64,000 bases of DNA from the IMG/VR virus record IMGVR_UViG_3300012016_000001, positions 1 through 64,000 of that record; one strand, 5' to 3'. Position 1 is the stretch's first letter. The number at the start of each line of letters is the position of its first letter. Below are positions 3-55,134 of the stretch, piece after piece. The translations under genes were made by a program, and so were the position numbers. The notes under the pieces are model-generated. The model was not told the DNA's origin, did no database searches, and saw only the letters and a program-made list of their open reading frames with translations. This stretch comes from a virus. Its lineage: Duplodnaviria > Heunggongvirae > Uroviricota > Caudoviricetes.

Positions 3-809
3 GATGTTAAAAGTTTGTATCCAAAAACTTATCAAAGAGAATTGGTTAATAAACAATTTAATCAACTCATTGATGTAGCTAAACAGGATATGAATCGTCA
101 AACTGGCTTTATAGTGGCTCTTGATGTTTCAGGGTCAATGACCTCTAAAGCTCCAGGTACAGGACGTTCTGCTTATTCTGTTGGGCGTGCTATGGCATTG
201 TACTTCTCTGAATTATTAAAAGGTAAGTTTGCACATACATTCTTAGCTTTTAGTAATACAGTTGTGATAGATAGATTTGAAGGTAAAACTCCTTTAGAGA
301 AATATTACAATGGATATAGAAAGTATGATGCTTGTAACACTAACTTCTTCCAGATTGCTCAGTTGTTTGTGCAACTAAAGAATAGAGGATACAAAGAAGA
401 AGATTTTCCAACAGGTATCGTATGTATATCTGATGGAGAATTTGATAGACCTGGAGGAGACTGGAATAGTACTGGTGATTCTGATTGGAGATATAGAGGA
501 AAAGAAACCAGAGAGACAGTCTTTGAATCTTTTAAGAATCATTTAAAGAAAAATGGCTTCTCCGAAGAGTATGTTGATAACTTAAAAATGGTTCTTTGGG
601 ATGTTCCAAGCTATTACTATAGTTCTAGTCCAGATGTAAAGTTTGAAGCTCTTGCAGACACTCCAAACATTTTCCACATGAGTGGATATGACCCTGCAGG
701 TATTGCTTTCTTAACAGGAACATCACAAGTACAAGTAATTCCAAAAACTCCAGAGGAGTTATTTGAGGCTGCTATGCAGCAAGAGTTAATCCAATTGCTA
801 AACATTTGA
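3..809 (+). CDS. von Willebrand factor A (vWA) domain protein, 5' end outside window
   Basis: Frame is open to the window edge. MIDAS-like motif VALDVSGSM and downstream ISDGE motif. Confidence 0.6.
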   Translation, partial: DVKSLYPKTYQRELVNKQFNQLIDVAKQDMNRQTGFIVALDVSGSMTSKAPGTGRSAYSVGRAMALYFSELLKGKFAHTFLAFSNTVVIDRFEGKTPLEKYYNGYRKYDACNTNFFQIAQLFVQLKNRGYKEEDFPTGIVCISDGEFDRPGGDWNSTGDSDWRYRGKETRETVFESFKNHLKKNGFSEEYVDNLKMVLWDVPSYYYSSSPDVKFEALADTPNIFHMSGYDPAGIAFLTGTSQVQVIPKTPEELFEAAMQQELIQLLNI

Positions 810-2638: not shown

Positions 2639-2710
2639 AGAGGTCTTACAGCAACTTGAAATCTAACTTATGCTTAATTTAGGAAGAAAGGAGTAGTTTT
2701 TCAGACCTCT
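2639..2710 (+). ncRNA. CAGCAA-box long-range-helix element, copy E1
   Basis: AGAGGTCT (2639-2646) pairs with AGACCTCT (2703-2710). CAGCAA lies at 2649-2654, 2 nt after the 5' arm. Confidence 0.5.
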
Positions 2711-2738
2711 GCTTAATTGAATCTAGCAATAGGTTCAT

Positions 2739-2813
2739 GGGTGGTTAGCTCAGCTGGCTGGTAGCAAATGACTGTTAATCATTAGGCCGTGGGTTCGAGT
2801 CCCACACCGCCCT
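2739..2813 (+). tRNA. tRNA-Asn(GTT)
   Basis: Hand-folded cloverleaf: acceptor GGGTGGT/ACCGCCC, anticodon loop CTGTTAA, T-arm GTGGG-TTCGAGT-CCCAC. Confidence 0.85.
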
Positions 2814-2818
2814 CTTAA

Positions 2819-2931
2819 AGGTGTGCTGCGTCCTTATGGACTACTCAGCAAATTTATTTCCTACGATCATAAATTTGTAAAATTAACACGAATGAAGGGT
2901 AAATGGATCAATCGAGGCAGGAGGCACACCT
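2819..2931 (+). ncRNA. CAGCAA-box long-range-helix element, copy E11 (variant with an extra inserted hairpin)
   Basis: AGGTGTGC (2819-2826) pairs with GCACACCT (2924-2931). CAGCAA at 2846-2851 follows a GTCC-ttat-GGAC hairpin. A second 10-bp helix, GAAGGGTAAA (2894-2903) with TTTACCCTTC (2963-2972), interleaves with it. Confidence 0.4.
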
Positions 2932-2976
2932 GTTAAATCAAAATCTGTATTAGAAAGTGAAGTTTACCCTTCTAAT

Positions 2977-3050
2977 GCTCCTTTAGCTCAGTTGGATAGA
3001 GCAATAGCCTTCTAAGCTATGGGTCGTTGGTTCGAATCCAACAGGGAGTA
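2977..3050 (+). tRNA. tRNA-Arg(TCT)
   Basis: Acceptor GCTCCTT/AGGGAGT, D-arm GCTC..GAGC, loop CTTCTAA, T-arm GTTGG-TTCGAAT-CCAAC. Confidence 0.85.
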
Positions 3051-3055
3051 CTAGT

Positions 3056-3178
3056 ATGAAAGAAAAATTAAGACAATGGTTCTATTCAATTAATGTCAAT
3101 AAGTATAGACATTATTTTGAGGAATGGTATTCCAATTTAACTCCTCAACAATTAAGATGGTATGAAAAAATATTCTAG
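3056..3178 (+). CDS. small hypothetical protein (40 aa) ending in TAG; would extend to 3208 if TAG is read through
   Basis: ATG at 3056, TAG at 3176-3178, next in-frame stop TGA at 3206-3208. Confidence 0.3.
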   Translation: MKEKLRQWFYSINVNKYRHYFEEWYSNLTPQQLRWYEKIF

Positions 3179-3210
3179 ATTAGACGAATTAAAGTAAAAA
3201 ATAAGTGAAA

Positions 3211-3834
3211 ATGAAGAAATTTTTAGTACTCATGTTTGCCTTACTAATGGCTATTAGTTTTTAGAGTTGCACCAACTGTAGTGGTAATCCCAGTCTAAAC
3301 AGTCCTGTTAAAACTGAACTTGTAGTGGATCAAGCTATTAGCTTAGATAACTAGTACATGTTCATGAATTATGGTGAGAACTATCGTTGGTTTGAAACTT
3401 GCGTTCTTATGGACGATTTCCTAGATGAGGAAACTGATGGAAGTGTTAATATGGTTGTTAATATCTATCAGGTTGCAAAAGGTGATGATAAATCTTTCGA
3501 TGTTAAAGTATTCAAGTTTCAACACTTAAAAGATGGAACTGTTTTGAAAGATTCTGTTGCTGGTTTTTGGATAGAAGATAATCCTTTGAATGATTCAACT
3601 ATAAAGATTGATTACAAGGAAGCCTTTAATCTTGTTCAAAAGGTAAATCTACCTAAACCACATACTAGAAATGCTATTCTAAGGAATCCTCTTGGTCCTC
3701 TAGACACTAATCCACAGTGGGTGTTCGGAAATATCCGTGAACAAATATGGGTGGATGCAACCACAGGAGAAATTAGAAAATCAAATCCAGCATTTCCTGA
3801 TGAATTAAAAATGCCTCTTGGTGAATGGCCCTGA
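3211..3834 (+). CDS. putative lipoprotein containing two in-frame TAG codons (3262-3264 and 3352-3354)
   Basis: ATG at 3211 encodes MKKFLVLMFALLMAISF-TAG-SC, a signal peptide plus Cys. It is in frame with track ORF 3358-3834, and the only interruptions are two TAGs. Confidence 0.55.
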
Positions 3835-3919
3835 TTTCACTCTTTGAGCTAGTTGGGAAACTAGCATGTAAAACCGATATTTTTCATAAATTATTAGGAG
3901 CTACGAGTTAGCTCCATTT

Positions 3920-3993
3920 GGGGGTAGTGGTGTAAATGGCTAACACATAATCCTTGCAAGATTAAATTTAGGGTTCGAGTCCCTCTACTTCCA
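3920..3993 (+). tRNA. tRNA-Ala(TGC)
   Basis: Acceptor GGGGGTA/TACTTCC with a G3:U70 wobble (Ala identity), loop CTTGCAA, T-loop TTCGAGT. Confidence 0.8.
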
Positions 3994-3997
3994 CATA

Positions 3998-4065
3998 CAG
4001 AAGACACACAGCAAGTGCTTTATAATAAAAAATTTTAGGGAAATTTAATAATTATAAGTCTTCTG
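3998..4065 (+). ncRNA. CAGCAA-box long-range-helix element, copy E2
   Basis: CAGAAGAC (3998-4005) pairs with GTCTTCTG (4058-4065). CAGCAA at 4009-4014. Confidence 0.5.
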
Positions 4066-4070
4066 ATTTT

Positions 4071-4146
4071 GGCTTGTTGAGCCCACTGGAGTGGGAACTT
4101 GACTGTCACTCAAGTAAAACAAAGGGATCGATACCCTTGCAGGCCG
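4071..4146 (+). tRNA. tRNA-Asp(GTC), atypical D-arm and T-loop
   Basis: Acceptor GGCTTGT/GCAGGCC, anticodon arm CTTGA-CTGTCAC-TCAAG, T-arm AAGGG-ATCGATA-CCCTT with A at position 54. Confidence 0.55.
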
Positions 4147-4203
4147 CTAAATCAAAACTAATGAGTCTCTAAAGTATTTTTAAACAATTAAAGTGTAACC
4201 TGT

Positions 4204-4461
4204 ATGATTAACTCGATTCCTATAATGGACCAGAAGATTATTGATAAGTATTTTCCTGGCCAAGCAGTCAAGTCAATCATGCGTACACCGTTAAAGTCTG
4301 TGAGAGGCTATTCACTTGAAGGAAACAAAGGATTGCTTATAAGCACTCCGAAACTTAAACACCTTCTTGCTCTTTATGCTTCTCAGATAGCGTTACAAAC
4401 AAAATGGAATACTTCCCTTAATAAGGAAGGAGACCATTTGATTTGTCTCTTGTACCCTTAA
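4204..4461 (+). CDS. hypothetical protein (85 aa) between tRNA genes
   Basis: Track ORF. It is preceded by the 15-mer AACAATTAAAGTGTA, which recurs at 8315. Coding status is uncertain. Confidence 0.3.
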   Translation: MINSIPIMDQKIIDKYFPGQAVKSIMRTPLKSVRGYSLEGNKGLLISTPKLKHLLALYASQIALQTKWNTSLNKEGDHLICLLYP

Positions 4462-4472
4462 ATGGGTAATAC

Positions 4473-4543
4473 TGGTCCTTAGTTTAGTGGTAAAACGATG
4501 GTCTCCAAAACCATTGTCATCTGTTCGATTCAGATAGGGCCTG
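4473..4543 (+). tRNA. tRNA-Trp(CCA)
   Basis: Anticodon arm ATGGT-CTCCAAA-ACCAT, T-arm ATCTG-TTCGATT-CAGAT. The acceptor has one mismatch in either register. Confidence 0.7.
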
Positions 4544-4576
4544 CAATCACTAAAGGGAAAAGAAACTGTAGTTTAT

Positions 4577-4647
4577 GGGCAATTGTCCGAGCGATTAGGT
4601 GGCGGACTGCAAATCCGTCTAGACAGGTTTGACTCCTGTATTGCCTT
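4577..4647 (+). tRNA. tRNA-Cys(GCA)
   Basis: Acceptor GGGCAAT/ATTGCCT, anticodon arm GCGGA-CTGCAAA-TCCGT, T-arm ACAGG-TTTGACT-CCTGT. Confidence 0.75.
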
Positions 4648-4685
4648 CATCAAATGATGTTGATTTTTTGCATATTAATGACTTT

Positions 4686-4713
4686 AGTGTCTGGTTCGTG
4701 AGAATAGGACACT
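4686..4713 (+). ncRNA. conserved-loop hairpin H1 (loop TGGTTCGTGAGAATAG), 9 nt upstream of a tRNA
   Basis: Stem AGTGTC/GACACT. The loop is shared with H2-H4 while the stems differ. Confidence 0.5.
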
Positions 4714-4721
4714 TTTTACAT

Positions 4722-4793
4722 CGCAGGGTAGAGCAGTGGTAGCTCGCAAGTTTCATAAGCTTGAAGTCGTTAGTTCGAATCTAACCCCTGCAA
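4722..4793 (+). tRNA. initiator-like tRNA-fMet(CAT)
   Basis: CGCAGGG..CCCTGCA gives a C1-A72 mismatch as in bacterial tRNA-fMet, and overall similarity to E. coli tRNA-fMet in the acceptor and D-arm. The anticodon stem CAAGT/GCTTG lacks the three G-C pairs. Confidence 0.75.
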
Positions 4794-4799
4794 CAAATT

Positions 4800-4883
4800 G
4801 GGAGTTTATTCCGTAAGTGGTAGCGGGGCTGACTGTAAATCAGCTTGCTTTTGCATCGGGGTGTTCGACTCACTCAGCTCCCA
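4800..4883 (+). tRNA. tRNA-Tyr(GTA), long variable arm
   Basis: Acceptor GGGAGTT/AGCTCCC, anticodon arm GCTGA-CTGTAAA-TCAGC, long variable arm, T-arm GGGTG-TTCGACT-CACTC. Confidence 0.8.
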
Positions 4884-4887
4884 CTTT

Positions 4888-4959
4888 GGCCTTATAGTTC
4901 TAATGGTAAAACACCGCACTTGTAATGCGGATTTCTCAGTTCGATTCTGGGTAGGGCCT
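4888..4959 (+). tRNA. tRNA-Thr(TGT)
   Basis: Acceptor GGCCTTA/TAGGGCC, anticodon arm CCGCA-CTTGTAA-TGCGG, T-arm CTCAG-TTCGATT-CTGGG. Confidence 0.8.
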
Positions 4960-5027
4960 CTATGCATCGGCTTAGGACTGTTGCGTTACGCTTCCTCATG
5001 GTGATACCTTTAAGGTAGAGGAAGAAA

Positions 5028-5086
5028 GGAGTACACACAGCAATGTTTTTATACAGTTATGATATTGCAGAGTTGTTTTGTACTCC
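5028..5086 (+). ncRNA. CAGCAA-box long-range-helix element, copy E3
   Basis: GGAGTACA (5028-5035) pairs with TGTACTCC (5079-5086). CAGCAA at 5038-5043. Confidence 0.5.
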
Positions 5087-5090
5087 GTAT

Positions 5091-5116
5091 GAGGTTGGCT
5101 TTGTCCAACCTCTTTT
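5091..5116 (+). terminator. terminator-like hairpin abutting the next tRNA
   Basis: GAGGTTGG (5091-5098) pairs with CCAACCTC (5105-5112), followed by TTTT. It could instead be a processing hairpin. Confidence 0.4.
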
Positions 5117-5205
5117 GCCCTCATCGTATATCGGTCAGTGCTGGAAACAGACGATTACCCCTGCCTTTTAAGCAGGTAAGCATGGTTCGACTCCATGTGG
5201 GGGCA
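5117..5205 (+). tRNA. tRNA-Lys(TTT) with about 17-nt expansion of the D-arm (89 nt)
   Basis: Acceptor GCCCTCA/TGGGGGC, anticodon arm CCTGC-CTTTTAA-GCAGG, T-arm CATGG-TTCGACT-CCATG. The D region is GTA-T-ATCG...CTG-GAAA-CAG...CGAT-TAC, an extended helix carrying a GAAA-capped hairpin. Confidence 0.6.
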
Positions 5206-5244
5206 CTATAAAAATCAAGACAATAAAAGTAGTTTTTAAGAAAT

Positions 5245-5376
5245 AAAGAAGTCTTACAGCAATAACAATTAATCTAAGTTTACCAAAAAGCGCTGAACTT
5301 GTAGTTCAATGGTAGAATACCTTTTTATTAAAAAGGAGATGACGGTTCGAATCCGTGTGGCAAAAAAGACTTCTTT
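5245..5376 (+). ncRNA. CAGCAA-box element, copy E4, enclosing a tRNA-like core without a conventional acceptor stem
   Basis: AAAGAAGTCTT (5245-5255) pairs with AAGACTTCTTT (5366-5376). CAGCAA at 5257-5262. Inside are a D-arm GTTC-AATGGTA-GAAT, the hairpin CCTTT-TTATTAA-AAAGG, and a T-arm ACGG-TTCGAAT-CCGT. Confidence 0.5.
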
Positions 5377-5379
5377 TAT

Positions 5380-5452
5380 AGAGCTATCCTCTAATAGGTT
5401 AGGAGACGTGACTGATAATCACGCAATCCCAGTTCAAGTCTGGGTAGCTCTA
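5380..5452 (+). tRNA. tRNA-Ile(GAT)
   Basis: Acceptor AGAGCTA/TAGCTCT, anticodon arm CGTGA-CTGATAA-TCACG, T-arm CCCAG-TTCAAGT-CTGGG. Confidence 0.85.
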
Positions 5453-5526
5453 CAATCGTCCAAACAAAAAGTAATACAAACAAACATTTATCAAACTAAA
5501 CATTCAGCAAAACACAATAAGAATAT

Positions 5527-5550
5527 TTCTGCTTAGGCAGAAGTGTTTTT
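5527..5550 (+). terminator. small rho-independent terminator-like hairpin
   Basis: TTCTGC-ttag-GCAGAA followed by GTGTTTTT. Confidence 0.45.
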
Positions 5551-5558
5551 AGTGTAAA

Positions 5559-5595
5559 CTCCTGGAGTACGTGTACTCTGGGAGGGTTTTGTTTT
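5559..5595 (+). terminator. rho-independent terminator
   Basis: 12-bp stem CTCCTGGAGTAC/GTACTCTGGGAG (with G-U pairs) followed by GGTTTTGTTTT. Confidence 0.65.
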
Positions 5596-5601
5596 GGACT
5601 C

Positions 5602-5631
5602 AGCCTCATCTAGTTGCAAATAGGTGAGGCT
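5602..5631 (+). ncRNA. conserved-loop hairpin H4 (loop TCTAGTTGCAAATAGG), 4 nt upstream of a tRNA
   Basis: Stem AGCCTCA/TGAGGCT. The loop is related to those of H1-H3. Confidence 0.4.
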
Positions 5632-5634
5632 TTA

Positions 5635-5709
5635 GGGGCAGTAGCGCAGGTGGTCAGTTCGCGCCAGTCTGAAAAACTGGAGATCGTGGTTCAACTCCAC
5701 GCTGCCCCA
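5635..5709 (+). tRNA. tRNA-Phe(GAA)
   Basis: Acceptor GGGGCAG/CTGCCCC, D-stem GCGC/GCGC, anticodon arm CCAGT-CTGAAAA-ACTGG, T-arm CGTGG-TTCAACT-CCACG. Confidence 0.85.
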
Positions 5710-5729
5710 CAGAATAGTATATTACTATA

Positions 5730-5798
5730 AAGAGGGCTCACAGCAAATTCATTCTAATTTTTTTCGCCATTATAAGTTTGATTAGCTAAAGCCCTCTT
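5730..5798 (+). ncRNA. CAGCAA-box long-range-helix element, copy E5
   Basis: AAGAGGGCT (5730-5738) pairs with AGCCCTCTT (5790-5798). CAGCAA at 5741-5746. Confidence 0.5.
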
Positions 5799-5805
5799 AA
5801 ATATA

Positions 5806-5869
5806 CAGGGTACAGACAGCAAACTTTATTTTAGGTTCGAACTTTTAACTCGATGTGTCTAGTACCCTG
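5806..5869 (+). ncRNA. CAGCAA-box long-range-helix element, copy E6
   Basis: CAGGGTAC (5806-5813) pairs with GTACCCTG (5862-5869), extended by AGAC/GTCT across a 1-nt bulge. CAGCAA at 5817-5822. Confidence 0.5.
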
Positions 5870-5874
5870 CCTAT

Positions 5875-5947
5875 AAAGGAGTCCTACAGCAAATTTGTCT
5901 TACATTCCGAATTGTCATTTCAGAAGAAAAAGAAAATGGACTCCTTT
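5875..5947 (+). ncRNA. CAGCAA-box long-range-helix element, copy E7
   Basis: AAAGGAGTCC (5875-5884) pairs with GGACTCCTTT (5938-5947). CAGCAA at 5887-5892. Confidence 0.55.
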
Positions 5948-5979
5948 TTAAATGAATAACCAATTATAAAATATATTAA

Positions 5980-6043
5980 GGAGGGCATGCAGCAAAAAGT
6001 TTGTAAATAGCGTGTCTGTGTAACATACTTAACAGTGCCCTCC
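5980..6043 (+). ncRNA. CAGCAA-box long-range-helix element, copy E8
   Basis: GGAGGGCA (5980-5987) pairs with TGCCCTCC (6036-6043). CAGCAA at 5990-5995. Confidence 0.5.
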
Positions 6044-6081
6044 GTTTTTATGAAAATGTTTTAACTATTTAAATAGTAACT

Positions 6082-6876
6082 ATGCAAAAATTAAATGTTT
6101 TATTAGCTCTTAGAGAGAAGTTAGCTAATCGTTATGCCCAAATGAACGGTGACTATACTTCATTCTTTAAGAACAAGCAAGGAGCGTTTCAAGGTACGCT
6201 CAAGACACACTCTCCTTTAGATGGGTATGCAGTAGATTCTACTAAAGTAGCTAATGTGAGAGTTATTACCACAGTCAATGAAAAAATGGATTGGTGGTTG
6301 AAAGAAGCTCTAGACTATTTTAACACAGCTTTGGCTATTGAAGCATCTAATGGGCAAGGTGCTCCTACAGTTGAACTAGAATTCGATGGAAGAACTTACG
6401 GTCCTTTCCCAGCTACTGTGTTATTAAGGCTTCGTGGCATTATAGAGAACGATAAGTTCGCTACAATGCTTGGTAATATTCCTGTTAGAGAGGAGACCAA
6501 AGTTTGGTTGCCTATTGATCAGGATGAAGATTACAAGAGAAGAGGTAATATCTTCCAAACAGAAAGACAAGAAGGTGAGACTCGTACTACAGAAACACAT
6601 GATGAAATCTTGAAAGATCCTAACTTAGATCCAGCTCATCTTCCTTCTAATTACCGTGCTCAAGTAACTCAAGTTAAGAGAACAGTTAAGACTGGAGATT
6701 ATACTACTCAGTCATTTACTGGTGAATGGACACATCAGCAACGTGCTAATCTTTTAAAAAGAAGAAGTGCATTGCTCGATGCTATCAATGTTGCCTTACA
6801 AAAAGTCAATGACCGTGAGGCAATTGAGTGTAAAGTAGATGATCTATTCAGACATCTCATTTATGGACAAAATTAA
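6082..6876 (+). CDS. hypothetical protein embedded in the tRNA array
   Basis: 264-aa ORF with no recognised motif. Confidence 0.55.
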   Translation: MQKLNVLLALREKLANRYAQMNGDYTSFFKNKQGAFQGTLKTHSPLDGYAVDSTKVANVRVITTVNEKMDWWLKEALDYFNTALAIEASNGQGAPTVELEFDGRTYGPFPATVLLRLRGIIENDKFATMLGNIPVREETKVWLPIDQDEDYKRRGNIFQTERQEGETRTTETHDEILKDPNLDPAHLPSNYRAQVTQVKRTVKTGDYTTQSFTGEWTHQQRANLLKRRSALLDAINVALQKVNDREAIECKVDDLFRHLIYGQN

Positions 6877-7010
6877 ACTTTAAATATTGACCCTAGCTTT
6901 AGCTTCACACTTTAGCTTTACAGAATCCTAGATAGTAAGCATCAATGTTGTGGTCAAAAGCTTTAGCGAAGTTGATTACAGTGTATTACTTACCTTGACG
7001 ACTATTATCG

Positions 7011-7154
7011 CTCGGTAATCGCGGGTTCAAATCCCGTCCCGCCCTCAAACAGAGTTCTTCTGAACTCTGCCCTTTCATGTTACTTTAGTCATTGCTTGTG
7101 AAAGTAGTGACTATATGGGCGGGTCGTCTAGTGGTTAAGACTCCGGGTTTTTAA
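7011..7154 (+). tRNA. circularly permuted tRNA-Lys(UUU)-like gene: 3' half (7011-7045) lies upstream of the 5' half (7117-7154)
   Basis: The 3' half is CTCGG-TAATC-GCGGG-TTCAAAT-CCCGT-CCCGCCC-T. The 5' half is GGGCGGG-TC-GTCT-AGTGGTTA-AGAC-T-CCGGG-TTTTTAA. Acceptor and anticodon stems are complementary only between the two halves. Neither half has a partner in the normal gene order. Confidence 0.55.
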
Positions 7155-7228
7155 GCATCAGCATTATAGGGTAAAATGTAATACGCAAAAGTTCATGGAT
7201 TAGTAAGACGGATTTGTCGCTAATCCTA

Positions 7229-7301
7229 GGGAGAGTAGCTCAGTGGTTAAAGCAATAGTCGCTAAAACTATCGATCGAGGGTTCGAATCCCTCCTCTCCT
7301 G
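7229..7301 (+). tRNA. amber-suppressor tRNA, anticodon CTA (reads UAG), with G at position 33
   Basis: A 73-nt canonical cloverleaf: acceptor GGGAGAG/CTCTCCT, anticodon arm ATAGT-CGCTAAA-ACTAT, T-arm GAGGG-TTCGAAT-CCCTC. Confidence 0.75.
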
Positions 7302-7364
7302 CTTATGTTACCATATTATATTATTTTTTCGTTAGTATCTGTCTGTGAAGATCGATACTAAGTC

Positions 7365-7459
7365 AGCGGGTTATGCAAATGGTAAAGCAGTAGTTTATCT
7401 ATGTGAGTACGTATAGTTCTAGGCCAGTACTCTTGGGAGTTCGAGTCTCTCACCCGCTA
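7365..7459 (+). tRNA. 95-nt tRNA-like gene, anticodon undetermined
   Basis: Perfect acceptor AGCGGGT/ACCCGCT, D-arm TGC-AAATGGTAAA-GCA, T-arm GGGAG-TTCGAGT-CTCTC. The 44-nt central region has no canonical 5-7-5 anticodon arm. Its best helices are GAGTAC/GTACTC and CTATG-(8 nt)-TATAG. Confidence 0.4.
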
Positions 7460-7498
7460 CAAATTAATTTAAAACAAATTGGGTAAAAAATAACCTAT

Positions 7499-7646
7499 AA
7501 AGGAGACGAACAGCAATTTCAACGTTTTGCATTTTGGTTGCCGAAGTTAGGGTTCGAATCCCTAGTCCTCCCTAATGGGAGGATTAGTGTAACTGGTAAG
7601 TGTGAAGTTAAGCACACGATAGCACGCGTTTTTGTTGGTCTCCTTT
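7499..7646 (+). ncRNA. CAGCAA-box element, copy E9, enclosing tRNA-Ser-like pieces in permuted order
   Basis: AAAGGAGAC (7499-7507) pairs with GTCTCCTTT (7638-7646). CAGCAA at 7511-7516. Inside, the T-arm TAGGG-TTCGAAT-CCCTA and GTCCTCC are followed after 6 nt by GGAGGAT, the same acceptor as the tRNA-Ser at 7851. Confidence 0.45.
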
Positions 7647-7850
7647 TAAAATATTTTCCCTCTTAAAGGTTTTGCTAGGAATCTAGCTTATCAGGGTATG
7701 CTCTAAGCTCTTAGTTACGGTGCACACGTTCTGAGTTTGAGTAGTGTATTATAAGTTCACCCATAACTGCAGATAAAAGTGAATGAAATTTACACGTCCT
7801 TAGGATTACTAAGAGGGATAAGGGAGAGATTTATTAATCTCTCCCCGAAT

Positions 7851-7940
7851 GGAGGATTAAGCCTAATTGCTAAGGCAGCGGTCTTGAAAACCGCCAGTAG
7901 TCGGTAAAACGACGTGTGGGTTGGAGTCCCACATCCTCCT
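7851..7940 (+). tRNA. tRNA-Ser(TGA), long variable arm
   Basis: Acceptor GGAGGAT/ATCCTCC, anticodon arm GCGGT-CTTGAAA-ACCGC, long variable arm, T-arm GTGGG-TTGGAGT-CCCAC. Confidence 0.85.
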
Positions 7941-7942
7941 CT

Positions 7943-8233
7943 ATGAGTAAATGTAAGACAAGTAAATGTAATGCAGCATGTTGTTACAACATCTGCTTTA
8001 AAGAGAATGAGCTTGAACGATTTTCTGTACGTATTGTAAATCCTGTTATAGATACTATTCCACTTCCTTGGGGAACTATGGCTAAAACTAATGAGAATAT
8101 GGATTTAAATAAATGTCCATTTCTTAGAAAGGATTTAAAGTGCAATATATACGAAAATCGTCCAGAGGTGTGTAGGTTGATGGGAGTTATTCCTAAGATG
8201 CCATGTAAGTATTTAAAGGAGAGTAAACCTTGA
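7943..8233 (+). CDS. YkgJ-like CxxCxxCC zinc/iron-chelating domain protein
   Basis: Motifs KCNAACCY and CPFL..KCNIYENRPEVCR. ATG at 7943; the track ORF N-terminus (7916) overlaps the tRNA-Ser. Confidence 0.6.
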   Translation: MSKCKTSKCNAACCYNICFKENELERFSVRIVNPVIDTIPLPWGTMAKTNENMDLNKCPFLRKDLKCNIYENRPEVCRLMGVIPKMPCKYLKESKP

Positions 8234-8303
8234 GGGTGATAGGGGCTGTTTGCTAAACAGTACGCTCGCTTCGGCGGGTGCGGATCGAGACCGCTGCTCT
8301 CCT
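8218..8303 (+). tRNA. tRNA-Ser(GCT), long variable arm; overlaps the last 16 nt of the upstream CDS
   Basis: Acceptor GGAGAGT/GCTCTCC, anticodon arm GCTGT-TTGCTAA-ACAGT, variable arm containing CGC-TTCG-GCG, T-arm TGCGG-ATCGAGA-CCGCT (49-65 mismatch). Confidence 0.65.
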
Positions 8304-8328
8304 CGCTAACTTTTAACAATTAAAGTGT

Positions 8329-8445
8329 ATGGAAGATTTAAATTACAAGTATGAAAAACCTGATAAACCAATTCAGGTTAATGTTCCAAGTAAACCACGA
8401 TTTAAAGTCAACCAAGAAGGTGGCGACACGCGTTGGTATACATGA
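8329..8445 (+). CDS. possible 38-aa ORF (coding status doubtful)
   Basis: ATG directly after the repeated 15-mer AACAATTAAAGTGTA. The region downstream looks structured rather than coding. Confidence 0.2.
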   Translation: MEDLNYKYEKPDKPIQVNVPSKPRFKVNQEGGDTRWYT

Positions 8446-8669
8446 ACTCCGACCATCCACAATGTCGTAAACTTAGGTGGCGTAGGAAAAGAAACTACTT
8501 TCCTGTTAGGTACGAGAACCTAATTTAGCTTTGTCAGTTTCGCTGAGGAAGAAACGACTATGTGACCTAGTCAGAAAATTAGGCAGAACTGTGGACGCAC
8601 AGCGAATAGAAGGTGGGTAAGATTGCGACTTGAGAACTCTATATGTCTTATAAACCTGCCTTCTCTTTA

Positions 8670-8743
8670 GGGCCTCTAGCACAATAGGTTAGTGCAACAG
8701 ACTCATAATCTGTAGGTTCCGAGTTCAAGCCTCGGGGGGCCCA
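8670..8743 (+). tRNA. tRNA-Met(CAT), either elongator or tRNA-Ile2 type
   Basis: Acceptor GGGCCTC/GGGGCCC, D-stem GCAC/GTGC, anticodon arm ACAGA-CTCATAA-TCTGT, T-arm CCGAG-TTCAAGC-CTCGG. Confidence 0.85.
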
Positions 8744-8759
8744 CTAAACACCTTTAAAT

Positions 8760-9554
8760 ATGAAATTAATAAGTAAAGAACGGACTGGCGGAAATCCAGC
8801 TATTGAAATTGAAATGGACAAGGTGGATAACCTAAGAGTTTTAGATATTATCCATTCTTTGGTTGATGCTCAAGGTAGAATCTATCCAATACCATTCTCC
8901 TTTATAAAGAATGATAATGAGGATACCTTGAACGTGGTAATGCAAGTGTTAGGTTTGTATACCTTTCCAACTCTTGAACTAACTGAATGGTTAGAAGAAC
9001 AAATAGATGAATACACTGAAGGTTACGAGCCTGCTATAGAAATATGTGCAGGAAGTGGATGGATAGGTAGACAACTTCAAATACCTACTACTGATGCCAA
9101 AATCCAAGAAGATCCTAAAGTGCGGAATCTATATTTAATGAGTAGTCAAATTCCTATGATATATCAGGATGATGTTGAAAAGATAGAAGCTCTTGAGGCA
9201 GTTAAAAAGTATAATCCTGAATATGTAATAGGTAGCTACGTTACTTCTACTGAAAGAATTAAGAAAAATAATAAAAGAAAGACTATCTATTTAAATATAC
9301 CTTTACCAAGCGGAGGATTTATAAAACAAAATATGATGGAGCTTGCAGAAAAGGAGATTCCGTTTTTTGGAGTTAATGTTCAAGCTATAATAAGGAGAGT
9401 GCATAAGACTTTCTTAGTTATAAATGAAAGAACCCATTATAACGAATCTTACTTGAGTATGCCACATAAGTCATATAAGTTTCCTTGGCTTGTAACTAGA
9501 GGTGATATTAAAAAAGGTCGTGTTTTAATATATGAGAACAAAGGATGGACTTGA
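8760..9554 (+). CDS. hypothetical protein, possible SAM-dependent methyltransferase fold
   Basis: AIEICAGSGWIG resembles methyltransferase motif I (weak). Confidence 0.45.
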   Translation: MKLISKERTGGNPAIEIEMDKVDNLRVLDIIHSLVDAQGRIYPIPFSFIKNDNEDTLNVVMQVLGLYTFPTLELTEWLEEQIDEYTEGYEPAIEICAGSGWIGRQLQIPTTDAKIQEDPKVRNLYLMSSQIPMIYQDDVEKIEALEAVKKYNPEYVIGSYVTSTERIKKNNKRKTIYLNIPLPSGGFIKQNMMELAEKEIPFFGVNVQAIIRRVHKTFLVINERTHYNESYLSMPHKSYKFPWLVTRGDIKKGRVLIYENKGWT

Positions 9555-9775
9555 AGTTTAGACGTTGCAAATGTTCACTTTCTCCAAAGGATATGGTTTT
9601 TACTTTTAAAACTCCAGTTAAACTCTGCGAGTATGAAGGTAAACAGTATATCATTATGGGGAGATTGAAAGAAACAAATAGAGAAAGTAAGAAATTATTA
9701 GAATTTCTATTTGGAGACGAAATTGTGTATACAAAACAATTAATATTAGTTCCAAGAGATTTCTTTTTCATCTAA
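9545..9775 (+). CDS. hypothetical protein
   Basis: 76-aa ORF overlapping the upstream stop by 10 nt. Confidence 0.4.
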   Translation: MDLKFRRCKCSLSPKDMVFTFKTPVKLCEYEGKQYIIMGRLKETNRESKKLLEFLFGDEIVYTKQLILVPRDFFFI

Positions 9776-9834
9776 GGGAGATGTGTCAGCAATTATTAAC
9801 TTTCTTATTGGTTTTAGTTTTTGGTTAGTCTCCC
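9776..9834 (+). ncRNA. CAGCAA-box long-range-helix element, copy E10
   Basis: GGGAGA (9776-9781) pairs with TCTCCC (9829-9834). CAGCAA at 9787-9792. Confidence 0.4.
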
Positions 9835-9841
9835 GTAACCT

Positions 9842-9879
9842 GGGGATAGGGTAAATGTTTACCCTTCCCCTATAATTTT
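9842..9879 (+). terminator. terminator-like hairpin
   Basis: GGGGATAGGGTAA pairs with TTACCCTTCCCC (one bulge), followed by tataatttt. Confidence 0.45.
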
Positions 9880-9886
9880 CTTAATA

Positions 9887-10696
9887 ATGTTAAATTTTGG
9901 TTTAAAACATTGTCATTCTTCTAATTGGCACAAGAAGTTTCCAAGAAAGAAGATTGAACATGAGGACCCAAAGCATCTAGGGATGCATCAACACCTTAGA
10001 CTACGTAATGAGTGGTTTGAGGGAAGACAAGGTTTTCTTTCCATTAAAGAGATTCGTAAGTTCTTGGAAGCAAATCTTGGTAAGAATGTAGATGAAGTAT
10101 TCTCTGAATTTGTTAAACGTGCTAAAAGATATAAGCATGATGTTAGTCTTAGAGAAAGATTCTTTGCACAGTTAGACCCAGACACTAGGTATGGTTCTGG
10201 TTATACTTTAGATATACAAAACAAAATAGTAAAGGTTAAAGAAATTAAAGTTCACAGGATACGTGACAACGAAGCTCGTGTATTTAATGAAGTAGCTTAT
10301 CCTTATAATATTAATCAGTATTTAAGAGAAACGGAACTTACTTATATAGGAGATTTTTATCTAAGAACTAGACATTGGAATTGGGTAAAAGCACCTGTGT
10401 ATGTATGTAGTAAGGAATGGTATAACTTAGTACTGACATATGGAGTAGGCAAGAAATATACTAAAATGAATGAAATGCAAAGGATACATATATTCTTTAA
10501 TAAGTATATTGCTGTAGGAGTTCCAAAGAAAGGATATGCTACTCGTGCTGAACCTACTGGTAATACTATATGTATCTGTAATCACGAAATGCGAGAGTAT
10601 AAACACGTTAAGTATCCATATACAACAATGGATTGCGAGTCTGATTATATCTTCCTTACTAAGGGAGGAGAAGATACTAATTGGTACGTATATTAA
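9887..10696 (+). CDS. hypothetical protein
   Basis: 269-aa ORF. Confidence 0.55.
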   Translation: MLNFGLKHCHSSNWHKKFPRKKIEHEDPKHLGMHQHLRLRNEWFEGRQGFLSIKEIRKFLEANLGKNVDEVFSEFVKRAKRYKHDVSLRERFFAQLDPDTRYGSGYTLDIQNKIVKVKEIKVHRIRDNEARVFNEVAYPYNINQYLRETELTYIGDFYLRTRHWNWVKAPVYVCSKEWYNLVLTYGVGKKYTKMNEMQRIHIFFNKYIAVGVPKKGYATRAEPTGNTICICNHEMREYKHVKYPYTTMDCESDYIFLTKGGEDTNWYVY

Positions 10697-10704
10697 ATAG
10701 ATTA

Positions 10705-11063
10705 GGGCCTGACCGGATTTGACGGCTTCTGAAGGTAAATCACTCACTCATGACTGATGGAAAGACATCAAAAAAATTAAACGGAGAAAATAACACAACT
10801 CCCCGCGCTAAAGTTGTTAGCATCGTTTATAGAGCTGCAGCTTGATCGACGCCTGGTAAAAGGGTAACCAAGGAACATAATACCCTTAATTTCTTTATTT
10901 TTAGCCAATAATATTCTGCGCCTATCGGAGATATAACTAAATAGGCTGGTGGAAAGTCAGACAACAGTCTGCCCCAGAGAAGGAAACTCTTATAAAACCT
11001 ATGAGTGTAAGAATGTGATGAGAATAGGATTCGCGGACGAGGGTTCGACTCCCTCCAGGTCCA
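10705..11063 (+). ncRNA. ssrA: tmRNA (SsrA), one-piece
   Basis: The 5' end GGGCCTGACCGGATTTGACGG and the 3' end GGACGAGGGTTCGACTCCCTCCAGGTCCA closely resemble bacterial tmRNA termini. Acceptor GGGCCTG/CAGGTCC has a G3:U70 pair. Internal tag ORF at 10783-10845. Confidence 0.88.
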
Positions 11064-11317
11064 CTTGTTAAATAATGTTAAATTTATTGTGGATTTATAT
11101 TGTTATTTATATATTTAATCCTGTAAAAACGTTCATTATAGTAAAGATAAAATGTTCCAGCACTCACGGCTACAAACTGAGTGACTAGTGTTCAACAAGA
11201 GCGCAGTATTACTATCACAGCTGAACTATAGAGGCAGTGAAGACTTTATGGTCGAACTGAGGGCAGTTTAGTCTGGAACAATCTAAGCTGTTCTCTTTAC
11301 TTGTGAAATTCATAAAT

Positions 11318-11345
11318 ACCTTTCGGTTCGTGAGAATAGAAAGGT
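11318..11345 (+). ncRNA. conserved-loop hairpin H2 (loop GGTTCGTGAGAATA), 4 nt upstream of a tRNA
   Basis: Stem ACCTTTC/GAAAGGT. The loop core is identical to H1. Confidence 0.5.
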
Positions 11346-11348
11346 TAT

Positions 11349-11421
11349 GGCGGAATGATGTTTAATGGTAGCATGCTACTTTTGGGAAGTAGTCGAGTCG
11401 GTTCGAGTCCGGTTTCTGCCA
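11349..11421 (+). tRNA. tRNA-Pro(TGG)
   Basis: Acceptor GGCGGAA/TTCTGCC, anticodon arm CTACT-TTTGGGA-AGTAG, T-loop TTCGAGT. Confidence 0.8.
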
Positions 11422-11429
11422 CTATTGTT

Positions 11430-11502
11430 GCAACGTTAGTGTTAATGGTTAGCAAGAGGCCTTGCCAAGGCTTAAGAGTGAGTTCGAATCTCATACGCTG
11501 CT
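11430..11502 (+). tRNA. tRNA-Gly(GCC)
   Basis: Acceptor GCAACGT/ACGCTGC (one A-C mismatch), anticodon arm AGGCC-TTGCCAA-GGCTT, T-arm GTGAG-TTCGAAT-CTCAT. Confidence 0.75.
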
Positions 11503-11646
11503 CTCCACCGTCGAAATGGCTGAGACGTTAAGTAATTGCCAGACAGATACCCTTACTAAAGCAACAAGGGCGTGAATTATAGGTAACCAACGAGAAGAGA
11601 ACCTTTTGAAAGAGCCCCAACCCTAAGTGGAACTGGGTGGGGACCT

Positions 11647-11717
11647 GCGGGATTCGTTCAATGGTAGGACACTAGCCTTCCAAGCCTGTGATGTCGGTTC
11701 GATTCCGGTATCCCGCA
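11647..11717 (+). tRNA. tRNA-Gly(TCC) with a weak anticodon stem
   Basis: Acceptor GCGGGAT/ATCCCGC, loop CTTCCAA. The stem CTAGC/GCCTG has two central mismatches. Confidence 0.6.
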
Positions 11718-11887
11718 CCTACAGACTATTATTGCTGCAGAAGTAATAGTATCGAAGCAGCCCATACCCTCCGTCCGGCTGGGAGAAATCGTTCGTTCCG
11801 TACCTGAGCACCGAGGTATCTGTAGAAGCGTTAGTTAGAGTTACCTATGAGGGACGAGATGCCCTGTTGAAACTCGAAGGTGTACAT

Positions 11888-11961
11888 GGTGTAGATGGCC
11901 GAGTGGTTTAGGCGCAAGTTTGTGGCACTTGTTTACGCAGGTTCGAATCCTGTTCTACACC
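11888..11961 (+). tRNA. tRNA-His(GTG) with a G-1:C73 pair
   Basis: G-1 plus acceptor GTGTAGA/TCTACAC plus C73. Anticodon arm CAAGT-TTGTGGC-ACTTG, T-arm GCAGG-TTCGAAT-CCTGT. Confidence 0.85.
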
Positions 11962-11979
11962 CAATTAAATATTTTAATT

Positions 11980-12183
11980 ATGAAAGAAAGAATAAGAAAG
12001 ATTATTGAAAGAATTACTGAACGTAAAATTACAAATGATGATGAGCCTATAGAGATGGATAGTATAGACACTATGGAAGTTATAGTAAGTCTAGAGTATG
12101 AATATGACATCCATATAGATACTATTATAAAGGAGGATTTATCATTAAATGATTACGTTGAGTTAGTTAGGAGCATGGTGTAA
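11980..12183 (+). CDS. acyl carrier protein-like small protein
   Basis: 67 aa with EMDSIDTMEVIVSLEYEY, which matches the ACP DSLD phosphopantetheine-site helix. The track ORF N-terminus overlaps tRNA-His. Confidence 0.55.
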   Translation: MKERIRKIIERITERKITNDDEPIEMDSIDTMEVIVSLEYEYDIHIDTIIKEDLSLNDYVELVRSMV

Positions 12184-12252
12184 TGGTAGCACATCTGACT
12201 TTGACTCAGAAGGGAGCGTGAGCCACTGCAGGTTCGAGTCCTGCTGCTCCTA
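12169..12252 (+). tRNA. tRNA-Gln(TTG) with a 17-nt variable region; overlaps the last 15 nt of the ACP-like CDS
   Basis: Acceptor AGGAGCA/TGCTCCT, anticodon arm TCTGA-CTTTGAC-TCAGA, variable region AGGGAGCGTGAGCCACT (GC-GTGA-GC mini-hairpin), T-arm GCAGG-TTCGAGT-CCTGC. Confidence 0.7.
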
Positions 12253-12290
12253 CTTGTCTCCATTAAGGAGAATTTTAAAGGTGTTTGTTC

Positions 12291-12320
12291 AACTCACTGG
12301 TTTGCGAAAATAGGTGAGTT
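12291..12320 (+). ncRNA. conserved-loop hairpin H3 (loop TGGTTTGCGAAAATAG), 6 nt upstream of a tRNA
   Basis: Stem AACTCAC/GTGAGTT. Confidence 0.5.
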
Positions 12321-12325
12321 TAAAT

Positions 12326-12410
12326 GCTGCGTTCGACTAGTGGCTTAGGTCACAAGACTTTCAATCTTGTAGGATGAAAATCCTCAGGGGTTCGAATCCC
12401 CTACGCAGTA
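12326..12410 (+). tRNA. tRNA-Glu(TTC) with a 16-nt variable arm
   Basis: Acceptor GCTGCGT/ACGCAGT, anticodon arm CAAGA-CTTTCAA-TCTTG, variable arm T-AGGAT-GAAA-ATCCT-C, T-arm AGGGG-TTCGAAT-CCCCT. Confidence 0.75.
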
Positions 12411-12414
12411 CTAA

Positions 12415-12488
12415 GGGAGCTTAGTTCAGTGGTTTAGAACACTGCCCCTACAAGGCAGGAGTCGATAGTTCGAATCTATCAGTTCCCA
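12415..12488 (+). tRNA. tRNA-Val(TAC) with C at position 33
   Basis: Acceptor GGGAGCT/AGTTCCC, anticodon arm CTGCC-CCTACAA-GGCAG, T-arm GATAG-TTCGAAT-CTATC. Confidence 0.8.
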
Positions 12489-12515
12489 CGACAACTTTGT
12501 AAATCAACTGGGAAA

Positions 12516-13812: not shown

Positions 13813-14264
13813 ACCAAGAAGATAAAAAACTATTACTGAAAGACCTTTGTGCAAGATTGCCATATAGAGTAATTGTAGATTATGCTTATAATACCTTCAA
13901 AAATGGGTTAAAAGAGGGTAAATTAACTATTCTTACTTGTAATCTATTAAGCACATTCATATCACCTAGAATGAATGAGACTAATGAATATATTAAGCCA
14001 TATCTCCGTCCAATGTCTTTAATGACTGAAGGAGAATTTAAAAAACTAAAAGAGTATAGTGGATTGAAATATGAACAACTTGATTTAGCTTCATTTCAAA
14101 ATGGTACATATAAATGCCTTGATTTCTATTTATCAGAAGTGCCATCTTATATTGTAATATTAGTATTTGATTGGCTCAATGCACACCATTTTGACTATAG
14201 AGATCTGATTAAGCGTAATTTAGCAATTGCTGTAACAGAAGAGAATAACCCTTATGAGAATTAA
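13809..14264 (+). CDS. hypothetical protein, paralog family A (copy 1)
   Basis: Shares MxQEDKxLLLKDLxARLPY and NxHHFDYRxLI with ORF 14484-14873. Confidence 0.55.
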   Translation: MNQEDKKLLLKDLCARLPYRVIVDYAYNTFKNGLKEGKLTILTCNLLSTFISPRMNETNEYIKPYLRPMSLMTEGEFKKLKEYSGLKYEQLDLASFQNGTYKCLDFYLSEVPSYIVILVFDWLNAHHFDYRDLIKRNLAIAVTEENNPYEN

Positions 14265-14487
14265 AATTGGACACGGAACAAATGGCTATATTTTTGAAGA
14301 GATAGAAAAAGTAAAAGCTTGTAATTATTGTATACATTTTAAAGGTTATGGTTTACATGCTTGCAGTGGTCATTGTTCCAAGTTTGGTAAAGATGTTAAT
14401 GGAGGTTATATTGGTGTTTACTCTGAAACAGCAATAGAGTGTGGTGATTTTGAAGTAAGACCTGAACTATTAAAAATAAATATATGA
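14254..14487 (+). CDS. hypothetical protein
   Basis: 77-aa ORF. Confidence 0.4.
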   Translation: MRIKIGHGTNGYIFEEIEKVKACNYCIHFKGYGLHACSGHCSKFGKDVNGGYIGVYSETAIECGDFEVRPELLKINI

Positions 14488-54783: not shown

Positions 54784-55134
54784 ATGACTAAAGAAGAATT
54801 TTTATCTAAACGTACACCAGTATTTGTAGACCCAGAGATTGGGACTATAACACTGGTTAATAATTCTAATTTGAAAGATAAAGATTTTGCAGAAATATTT
54901 TCAAATATAAAAATTAGTTGGCTAGACACAACAAGAGGATACCTACTAGATGATTTTCTGATGTTGTATATAAACGATTATGAAATTCCACGTTTTCATA
55001 TAGGTTGTTGTACTTACTTTTTCAATATGTTTCCTAATATAAACTGGTTAGGATTAGGGTGCAATAAAGGTAAACCTGGAGAAATATGGATACCAAAATT
55101 AATAGTTAGTAAAGGTGATATATGTAGTCTCTAA
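54784..55134 (+). CDS. hypothetical protein
   Basis: Track ORF 54739-55134. The internal ATG at 54784 avoids overlap. Confidence 0.45.
   Translation: MTKEEFLSKRTPVFVDPEIGTITLVNNSNLKDKDFAEIFSNIKISWLDTTRGYLLDDFLMLYINDYEIPRFHIGCCTYFFNMFPNINWLGLGCNKGKPGEIWIPKLIVSKGDICSL

Follow-up and report, generated by a model that had tools for sequence, protein, structure and literature searches.

A lipoprotein gene with two in-frame TAG codons in the tRNA array of a crAss-like phage: sequence evidence for translation of TAG as glutamine

Introduction

Amber or opal suppression has been described in crAss-like phages, above all those of the Zeta group, and mostly in late genes (Yutin et al. 2021, PMC7886860; Lera phage paper, PMC12386605). 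Translation of TAG as Gln was confirmed in other crAss-like phages by mass spectrometry and metaproteomics (Peters et al. 2022, PMC9523058), and recoding was proposed to delay the translation of late or lytic genes (Borges et al., bioRxiv 10.1101/2021.08.26.457843). Here, we analyzed a stretch of 64,000 nucleotides of viral DNA (positions 1 to 64,000 of IMG/VR record IMGVR_UViG_3300012016_000001; hereafter, the window) that carries, at 3211-3834 on the + strand and within an array of transfer RNA (tRNA) genes, a predicted lipoprotein gene with two in-frame TAG codons. We consider it very likely that 3211-3834 is one gene, read through by suppression of TAG to Gln. Amber recoding in crAss-like phages is already known, and what is new here is the genome and the gene. 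In addition, a Trp-type origin of the suppressor tRNA, comparable to that of Escherichia coli su7 and combined with a G at anticodon-loop position 33 (G33), and a recurrent amber codon at lipobox position -2 appear unreported in the literature searched.

Zeta-group crAss-like phages have genomes of 145-192 kb with 33-35% GC, a tRNA block at the genome start, a CTA suppressor and polA (PMC7886860, PMC12386605). The phage of the window resembles them by its size of ~194 kb (contigs of 193,962 and 194,529 bp), its 33.5% GC, a block that holds 22 tRNAs and a CTA suppressor (Sup-CTA), a large replication and nucleotide-metabolism module and homing endonucleases; an adjoining block of TAG-rich genes for giant proteins may be a further likeness. 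Its PolA (55115-57388) is closest to Crassvirales, to which all the best tblastn matches belong (Kolpuevirus, 50.9%; cr116_1, IAS virus and PhiCrAssBcn phages, 34-37%, with cr116_1 at 37%). It differs from the Zeta group in that the contig is slightly above the published range and the best PolA match is Kolpuevirus and not a Zeta phage; Zeta genomes may be missing from the collection searched. Based on these sequence features, we provisionally regard the phage as a Zeta-group-like crAss-like phage.

Gut phages using code 15 (TAG to Gln) share with this phage in-frame TAG codons in a subset of genes, TAG facing Gln in homologs, a tRNA(CUA), replication and early genes free of TAG, and TAG-ended genes with nearby backup stops. 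By contrast with the structural or lysis genes of those phages, the recoded gene is here a small lipoprotein gene in the tRNA array, and no 'code-change module' of release factor or aminoacyl-tRNA synthetase was seen in the window.

A family of predicted lipoproteins covers both TAG codons

The frame 3211-3834 comprises 207 codons followed by a TGA stop (3832-3834). Its sole internal stops are the TAG of codon 18 (TAG1, 3262-3264) and the TAG of codon 48 (TAG2, 3352-3354), with no internal TAA or TGA, and its translation is MKKFLVLMFALLMAISF-[TAG]-SCTNCSGN...LDN-[TAG]-YMFMNYGE...PLGEWP-stop. A first, sequence-only reading had described a signal peptide with a Cys and a frame running through both TAGs into the open reading frame (ORF) 3358-3834 with no other stop, and our translation agrees. 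This standard-code ORF of 158 amino acids (aa) is the 3' portion of the 207-codon frame. By sequence pattern, positions 3211-3267 encode a signal peptide with an MKK n-region, a hydrophobic core and a lipobox F-[TAG]-S ahead of the Cys (MKK + FLVLMFALLMAISF + [TAG]-S-C), a layout kept in 119 homologs. TAG1 occupies position -2 of the lipobox, and the lipobox Cys20 (TGC, 3268-3270) is invariant in the family. From its n-region, hydrophobic core and lipobox, the product is predicted to be a bacterial-type lipoprotein and a substrate of signal peptidase II, with lipid attachment and cleavage of the signal peptide. We also observed a second conserved Cys (Cys23, 3277-3279) forming C-x-x-C with the lipobox Cys in 116/119 family members, and a C-terminal motif, NPAFP...MPLGEWP, conserved across the family.

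Using the 207-aa conceptual product as query, we obtained 380 homologs, of which 120 were listed; with few exceptions, these measured 200-220 aa and covered the full query. When aligned, 118 of 119 homologs were full length, with a signal peptide and a lipobox at their start, and covered the N-terminal 49 residues. Cys20 was present in all of them (119/119) and the residue before it (position -1) was S, A or G. The lone truncated entry, P0002 (156 aa, 100% identical), corresponds to the gene of the same phage as called by JGI with the standard code, and no homolog was found to start at the Met of 3358. It had been argued earlier that a signal-peptide mini-ORF and a signal-less protein would hardly be in frame by coincidence. 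The homologs bear out this argument; the open extension does not, as 49 codons upstream are not significant alone (~7% of such stretches would lack TAA and TGA by chance, as estimated from base composition). The TAG-interrupted frame is thus more than chance because of the homolog evidence, and not because of the open frame itself.

Reading TAG as Gln had been proposed to yield one 207-aa lipoprotein, which fits with the length of the homologs and with the TAG2 column, where Gln was present in 95/119 aligned proteins. Codons were verified in the 68 family members with DNA: the TAG2 column was CAA or CAG in 41 of 67 relatives and GAA or GAG in 15. The TAG1 column was variable. In the closest relative, P0001, encoded on the 1152-bp contig L001 and 86% identical at the protein level, the codon at TAG1 was TGG and that at TAG2 was CAA; the gene order of L001 (mini-gene, lipoprotein, tRNA-Ala, tRNA-Asp) was that of the window. 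With Q at TAG2, the predicted tryptic peptide spanning codon 48 is TELVVDQAISLDNQYMFMNYGENYR.

In IMG/VR, the family was recovered at 67 loci, whose contigs measure 4 to 673 kb and mostly >90 kb; among 185,579 species-representative genomes, it was recovered in just 5. One of the contigs concerned there is also an IMG/VR viral contig, and phage-like surroundings were observed in both contexts inspected. A profile search of the family gave 327 clusters at 50% identity, and a scan of a single metagenome with the Q-substituted protein returned one locus only. We consider the family essentially phage-specific. In the TGA-recoded members L056 and L070, TGA was found at the invariant Trp206 of the C-terminal PLGEWP motif; therefore, recoding of this gene family concerns several lineages, each with its own code. 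A further member, L024, has a TGA before FKMPLG and then a divergent C-terminus.

TAG recoding is genome-wide and limited to a subset of genes

Essentially the same phage is represented by a second assembly (ENA WOLF17-1 scaffold_8, 193,962 bp), which differed from the window by 9 mismatches in 12,565 overlapping bases. This assembly carried both TAGs at identical places, its lipoprotein gene was called as 207 aa, and it provided the sequences that flank the window (10 kb on either side). Two ORFs on the - strand of the downstream flank, one of 1535 codons with 30 in-frame TAGs and a partial one of >710 codons with 10, are the genes for giant proteins adjoining the window; on contig L004, which carries the ortholog discussed below, a 966-aa protein shows DMDGD at 745, a candidate for the RNAP-like DxDxD motif. 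Upstream, a 439-codon ORF contained 10 TAGs and a 490-codon glycosyltransferase gene contained 9. None of these four ORFs had an internal TAA or TGA. TAG made up 45-77% of TAG+CAA+CAG in the heavily recoded flank genes and 2/8 in the lipoprotein gene.

We then counted codons on the + strand of the window: 97 non-overlapping ORFs with a length of at least 60 aa contained 0 in-frame TAG versus 608 CAA or CAG; these ORFs were defined with the standard code, so that the absence of TAG is partly by construction. They include genes for an SNF2 helicase, DnaB, NrdD, a RecD/PIF1-like helicase, DNA ligase, a sigma-70 factor, PNK, PolA, ThyX and NAD salvage enzymes. The earlier observation that replication genes contain no internal TAG, and its corollary that recoding concerns only some genes, were both borne out by the comparison of the TAG-laden flank genes with the TAG-free window ORFs. 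TAG recoding in this phage is genome-wide yet limited to a subset of genes.

The 97 ORFs ended in TGA (50), TAA (42) or TAG (5). In the five early genes ending in TAG (20907, 23771, 31629, 43202 and 46707), a backup TAA or TGA was present 0-12 codons downstream, and short C-terminal extensions would arise in these genes once a suppressor is active. The nucleotide following in-frame TAG showed no difference from that after CAA/CAG, with no context signal to mark read-through as opposed to terminating TAGs. Next to the lipoprotein gene, a conserved 40-codon mini-gene (3056-3178, + strand; ratio of nonsynonymous to synonymous substitution rates (dN/dS) of 0.05 versus L001) also ends in TAG, with a backup TGA nine codons later (3206-3208). 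The sequence-only reading had judged this gain of 9 codons uninformative on recoding, and the coordinates agree.

A Trp-type tRNA(CUA) is encoded in the same array

An amber suppressor tRNA with anticodon CUA and a Trp-type body was detected at 7229-7302 on the + strand (ARAGORN; Rfam tRNA, 60.2 bits), 3.4 kb downstream of the lipoprotein gene and in the same array. It was absent from the sequence-only reading. Its anticodon loop is CGCUAAA, with G33, and it displays G1-U72, G2-C71, G3-C70, G10 and the discriminator G73; U33 is nearly universal in tRNA anticodon loops. In a syntenic relative, contig L010, the lipoprotein ortholog is 56% identical and the gene order is that of the window (cation ATPase, DUF2828/vWA, tRNA-Asn, Arg, lipoprotein, Ala, Asp, Trp, Cys ... 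Phe, DUF7873, Ser(UGA)). The suppressor slot, located in both phages between the DUF7873 gene and tRNA-Ser(UGA), is there occupied by a second tRNA-Trp(CCA) (14197-14270). The two tRNAs are of equal length and 82% identical, with compensatory stem changes; their anticodon loops, CGCUAAA and CGCCAAA, differ by C35U and have the odd G33 in common. In comparison, identity to tRNA-Gln genes was only 41-50%. The nearest annotated phage tRNAs were tRNA-Trp, and no exact match to the anticodon and T arms of the suppressor was found in IMG/VR. By sequence likeness, the suppressor is thus of Trp-type ancestry. A canonical tRNA-Trp(CCA) with U33 is present at 4473-4544 (+ strand, ARAGORN); therefore, the second Trp-type tRNA was free to serve as a suppressor.

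According to a passage of PMC2965240 that cites Yaniv et al. 1974, the E. coli tRNATrp(CUA) (su7) loses recognition by tryptophanyl-tRNA synthetase (TrpRS) and is charged by glutaminyl-tRNA synthetase (GlnRS). The phage tRNA is similar to su7 (supU) in its Trp-type body, in C35U and in the reading of TAG as Gln, and it possesses G73, G2-C71, G3-C70, G10 and a weak 1-72 pair. In E. coli, G73, G2-C71, G3-C70, G10 and a weak 1-72 pair are the identity elements of GlnRS. It differs from su7 in that the phage host is presumably a member of the Bacteroidota, where the rules of GlnRS may differ, and in that the phage tRNA and its CCA ortholog carry G33. By analogy, the suppressor is probably charged with Gln by the GlnRS of the host.

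These observations suggest the following explanation. The region 3211-3834 is very likely a single functional gene whose product is a secreted lipoprotein of 207 residues, in a ~194-kb crAss-like phage that recodes TAG to Gln in some genes only. Both TAGs would be read by the phage's own tRNA(CUA), which may derive from a duplicated Trp-type tRNA by a change of anticodon from CCA to CUA, the CCA/CUA comparison being one of two sequences that do not set the direction of change. Synthesis of the lipoprotein would have to await the suppressor, a timing that we infer; before that, translation would halt after a 17-residue peptide without the lipobox Cys. The locus would also illustrate a possible origin of an amber code change, in which a spare Trp-type tRNA gains C35U and comes to mean Gln, as su7 does.

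Orthologous codons point to Gln at TAG

Contig L004 encodes an ortholog with 81% identity to the flank protein of 1535 aa. The TAGs of the window phage faced CAA 12 times, TAG 10 times, CAG twice and other codons 6 times, and never faced TGG. CAA or CAG was thus present at 14 of the 20 non-TAG sites, and the same pattern was observed in the neighbouring gene. In the reverse comparison, the TAGs of L004 faced TAG (10), CAA (5) and CAG (1). A search of IMG/VR gave nothing closely related to the 1535-aa protein, and tblastn against GenBank phages gave three distant matches only. Overall, a reading of TAG as Gln in the recoded genes is supported because of this codon-level comparison of orthologs and of the CAA/CAG codons in the TAG2 column.

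The alternative that survives best is that the Trp-type suppressor inserts Trp at TAG, or Gln and Trp ambiguously, to which we attribute a low probability. The 82% identity to the tRNA-Trp(CCA) ortholog, G73 and the tRNA-Trp nature of the nearest annotated phage tRNAs are in its favour, as is the TGG found at TAG1 in L001. E. coli su7 is also known to accept some Trp. However, at the ~45 TAG sites of two large genes that were informative, the orthologous codon was never TGG and mostly CAA/CAG, and column 48 of the lipoprotein family was Gln or Glu and never Trp. The TGG of L001 says little for W or Q, since TAG1 is at a tolerant position of the signal peptide, which is predicted to be cleaved. 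Moreover, the E. coli tRNATrp(CUA) switches its identity to Gln, as stated in the same passage of PMC2965240.

Decay, standard decoding and sequencing error as other explanations

Reading 3211-3834 as a single suppressed gene was further compared with decay of the gene, in which two nonsense mutations (TGG to TAG and CAA to TAG) would have abolished its expression. The sense codons at both sites in L001 are compatible with such a pseudogene, TGG to TAG being one transition, and the neighbouring block is otherwise TAG-free. We nevertheless regard it as highly improbable: long conserved ORFs of the same genome contain in-frame TAGs by the dozen, a tRNA(CUA) is encoded there too, and the 207 codons contain no frameshift and no TAA or TGA. 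Between the window and L001, dN/dS of the lipoprotein gene was 0.19 over its full length, with values of 0.15 in codons 1-49 and 0.20 in codons 50-207; therefore, the region upstream of TAG2 is constrained as much as the remainder. A TAG at the same lipobox -2 codon in three other divergent orthologs, as well as the identical TAGs of the second assembly, also argue against decay.

Equally improbable to us is standard decoding, which would produce a 17-codon mini-ORF and a separate, signal-less 158-aa cytoplasmic protein from Met50. This is what standard-code callers report (ORF 3358-3834; the 156-aa P0002 of JGI), and it probably applies at the start of infection, when the suppressor has yet to accumulate. 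Against it, none of the homologs starts at the equivalent Met and 118/119 start with the signal peptide and lipobox. In an AlphaFold2 model of P0001 (mean predicted local distance difference test score of 86.6), codon 48 falls inside the first helix of the folded domain (residues 39-54), which is modelled with high confidence and includes residues 39-49; therefore, a product starting at Met50 would be predicted to miss part of the fold. With standard-code annotation, the gene would be mis-called as a protein of 158 aa without a signal peptide, and a lipoprotein family widespread among large phages of gut and rumen would stay hidden.

Sequencing or assembly error as the source of both TAGs, suggested by nothing beyond its general possibility in metagenome assemblies, can be considered excluded for practical purposes because the second assembly, which differs at 9 positions over 12.5 kb, carries the two identical codons, and L085, L086 and L023 also have a TAG at codon 18.

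Several points weigh against one gene suppressed to Gln. The unusual G33 of the suppressor may affect its decoding efficiency. Among window ORFs with a length of 250 aa or more, we found no GlnRS and no release factor or RF2, so that charging would have to rely on the host. The Trp of L001 at TAG1, where Gln is absent, and the Trp-type body of the suppressor make some insertion of Trp possible. The lipoprotein gene is surrounded by otherwise TAG-free genes, and a rule of 'late genes only' is not obviously applicable to it. Support for the lipoprotein gene of the window comes from sequence comparison, and the provisional Zeta placement of the phage from PolA similarity and genome layout.

The TAG at lipobox position -2 is recurrent

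Among the 68 DNA-verified members, in-frame TAGs were found in four (the window, L085, L086 and L023, the latter on the same contig as L012), a small sample in which two of the four carriers were selected for verification in DNA on account of the Q at -2 in their protein calls. The TAG codons were 18 and 48 in the window, 18 and ~35 in L085, 18 in L086, and 18 and ~26 in L023. All four carriers thus share codon 18, which is lipobox -2, and the other three TAGs are at three different sites. In a neighbour-joining tree, the carriers fell in three subclades, interleaved with L001 (TGG), L010 (AGT) and L008/L035 (GCA). Protein identity between the three TAG-bearing subclades was 53-59%, and the signal peptides were hypervariable. 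By contrast, CAA or CAG was present at the lipobox -2 codon in 0/64 of the DNA-verified members, the residues of the others being S, T, A, V, I, M, C, N, F, W or L, and Q was present at this position in 1 of 103 diverse cluster representatives with a recognisable lipobox. The protein alignment contained four 'Q' entries at -2, of which two were checked in DNA and both were TAG. The TAG-recoded phages L008 and L011, and probably L018 and L046, had no TAG in their lipoprotein gene; therefore, the lipobox -2 TAG is recurrent and not universal.

As a rough estimate, which depends on the number of Gln-tolerant positions, the chance of three lineages sharing one column was 2e-4 to 5e-3. A TAG kept or regained at one codon across ~55% identity looks non-random, because only 10/30 TAGs were conserved between the 81%-identical orthologs of the 1535-aa protein. 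Lipobox -2 is the earliest codon that accepts a polar residue, and this residue would be removed by signal peptidase II and be absent from the mature protein. We tentatively raise the possibility, about which we remain doubtful, that selection maintains the TAG at lipobox -2 as a gate on translation, and that it is more than just another interchangeable Gln codon. Such a gate would keep the lipoprotein fully off until the Trp-derived suppressor is expressed, the stop leaving only the short peptide described above. If true, it would provide gene-level evidence that recoded stops are retained for regulation, in a concrete and testable example.

Predicted fold and possible function of the lipoprotein

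The model of P0001 suggests a tandem PepSY-like/CD1622-like fold. Searches of Pfam, PHROGs and NCBIfam assigned no family to the lipoprotein and gave sub-threshold signal-peptide matches only; it had no significant match to the PepSY Pfam profile PF03413, and Foldseek against PDB gave nothing significant for the model. The CD1622 putative lipoprotein of Clostridioides difficile (PDB 4exr) is 11% identical to the window protein in sequence and is itself without assigned function, so that the match transfers none.

Phage lipoproteins that block receptors or superinfection are known, such as Llp of T5 and Cor of phi80/N15. Like these, the window protein is small, phage-encoded and equipped with a lipoprotein signal peptide, and its family is carried almost only by phages; the comparison is one by functional analogy. 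By this analogy, and with low confidence, the protein may act at the envelope, for example in superinfection exclusion or by masking a receptor. Llp of T5 is made early, unlike the window lipoprotein, whose gene would depend on a suppressor. A spanin role was considered and rejected, a globular domain of 170 residues being unlike what is generally known of o-spanins.

The tRNA array and other features of the window

The lipoprotein gene is located between tRNA-Arg (2977-3051) and tRNA-Ala (3920-3994), in the array that also holds the suppressor and comprises 22 tRNAs and a transfer-messenger RNA (tmRNA) over 2739-12489 (+ strand; ARAGORN, Rfam). Scans for sigma-70 promoters and intrinsic terminators around the gene gave background level only, and megablast of 2700-8000 against GenBank phages returned tRNA matches only. 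The tmRNA (10705-11064) has the tag peptide GENNTTPRAKVVSIVYRAAA and may matter where early TAG-terminated genes get read through; the related large phage L008 also encodes one (4494-4849). Of three odd tRNA calls, at 12169-12253, 12326-12411 and 5117-5206, tRNA-Gln(UUG) and tRNA-Glu(UUC) have class II-like hairpin insertions of 13-14 nt in the variable region, unusual for these isotypes, and a 90-nt call of 'tRNA-Val(GAC)' looks atypical. Beside tRNA-Ile, a partial tRNA-like match at 5302-5357 (Rfam 35.8 bits, model positions 8-63), without an ARAGORN call, may be a tRNA remnant.

At the start of the window, a 209-bp tandem duplication with 98% identity has its copies at window positions 7-215 and at L002 8235-8443, just upstream of the window start. 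It splits a Ro60-like DUF2828/TROVE + vWA gene, which is a single 600-aa ORF in L010, into two ORFs. A TAG at codon 415 of DUF2828 in the upstream flank was first taken as a candidate sign of recoding and was rejected, since it belongs to out-of-frame sequence from this duplication. The window starts at most 6 bp from the duplication junction, which may be an artefact of circularisation or assembly, or a genome terminus.

Among the replication genes, a full-length sigma-70 family protein (regions 1.2, 2, 3 and 4) is encoded at 50550-51395, and ORFs for LAGLIDADG and HNH homing endonucleases adjoin these genes (endonuclease and DnaB-like ORFs at 26374-27429, 39736-40497 and 27537-28490). The DnaB-like ORF matches its profile from position 32 on, suggesting an interruption by an intron or intein, as reported for Zeta crAss-like phages. 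Finally, a NAD metabolism cluster (60534-63093 and L003 11202-14396) includes genes for isochorismatase/nicotinamidase-like, ADP-ribosylglycohydrolase, NAPRTase, NAD synthase, nucleotidyltransferase and NUDIX proteins, and may serve to reconstitute NAD+ against NAD-depleting host defences.

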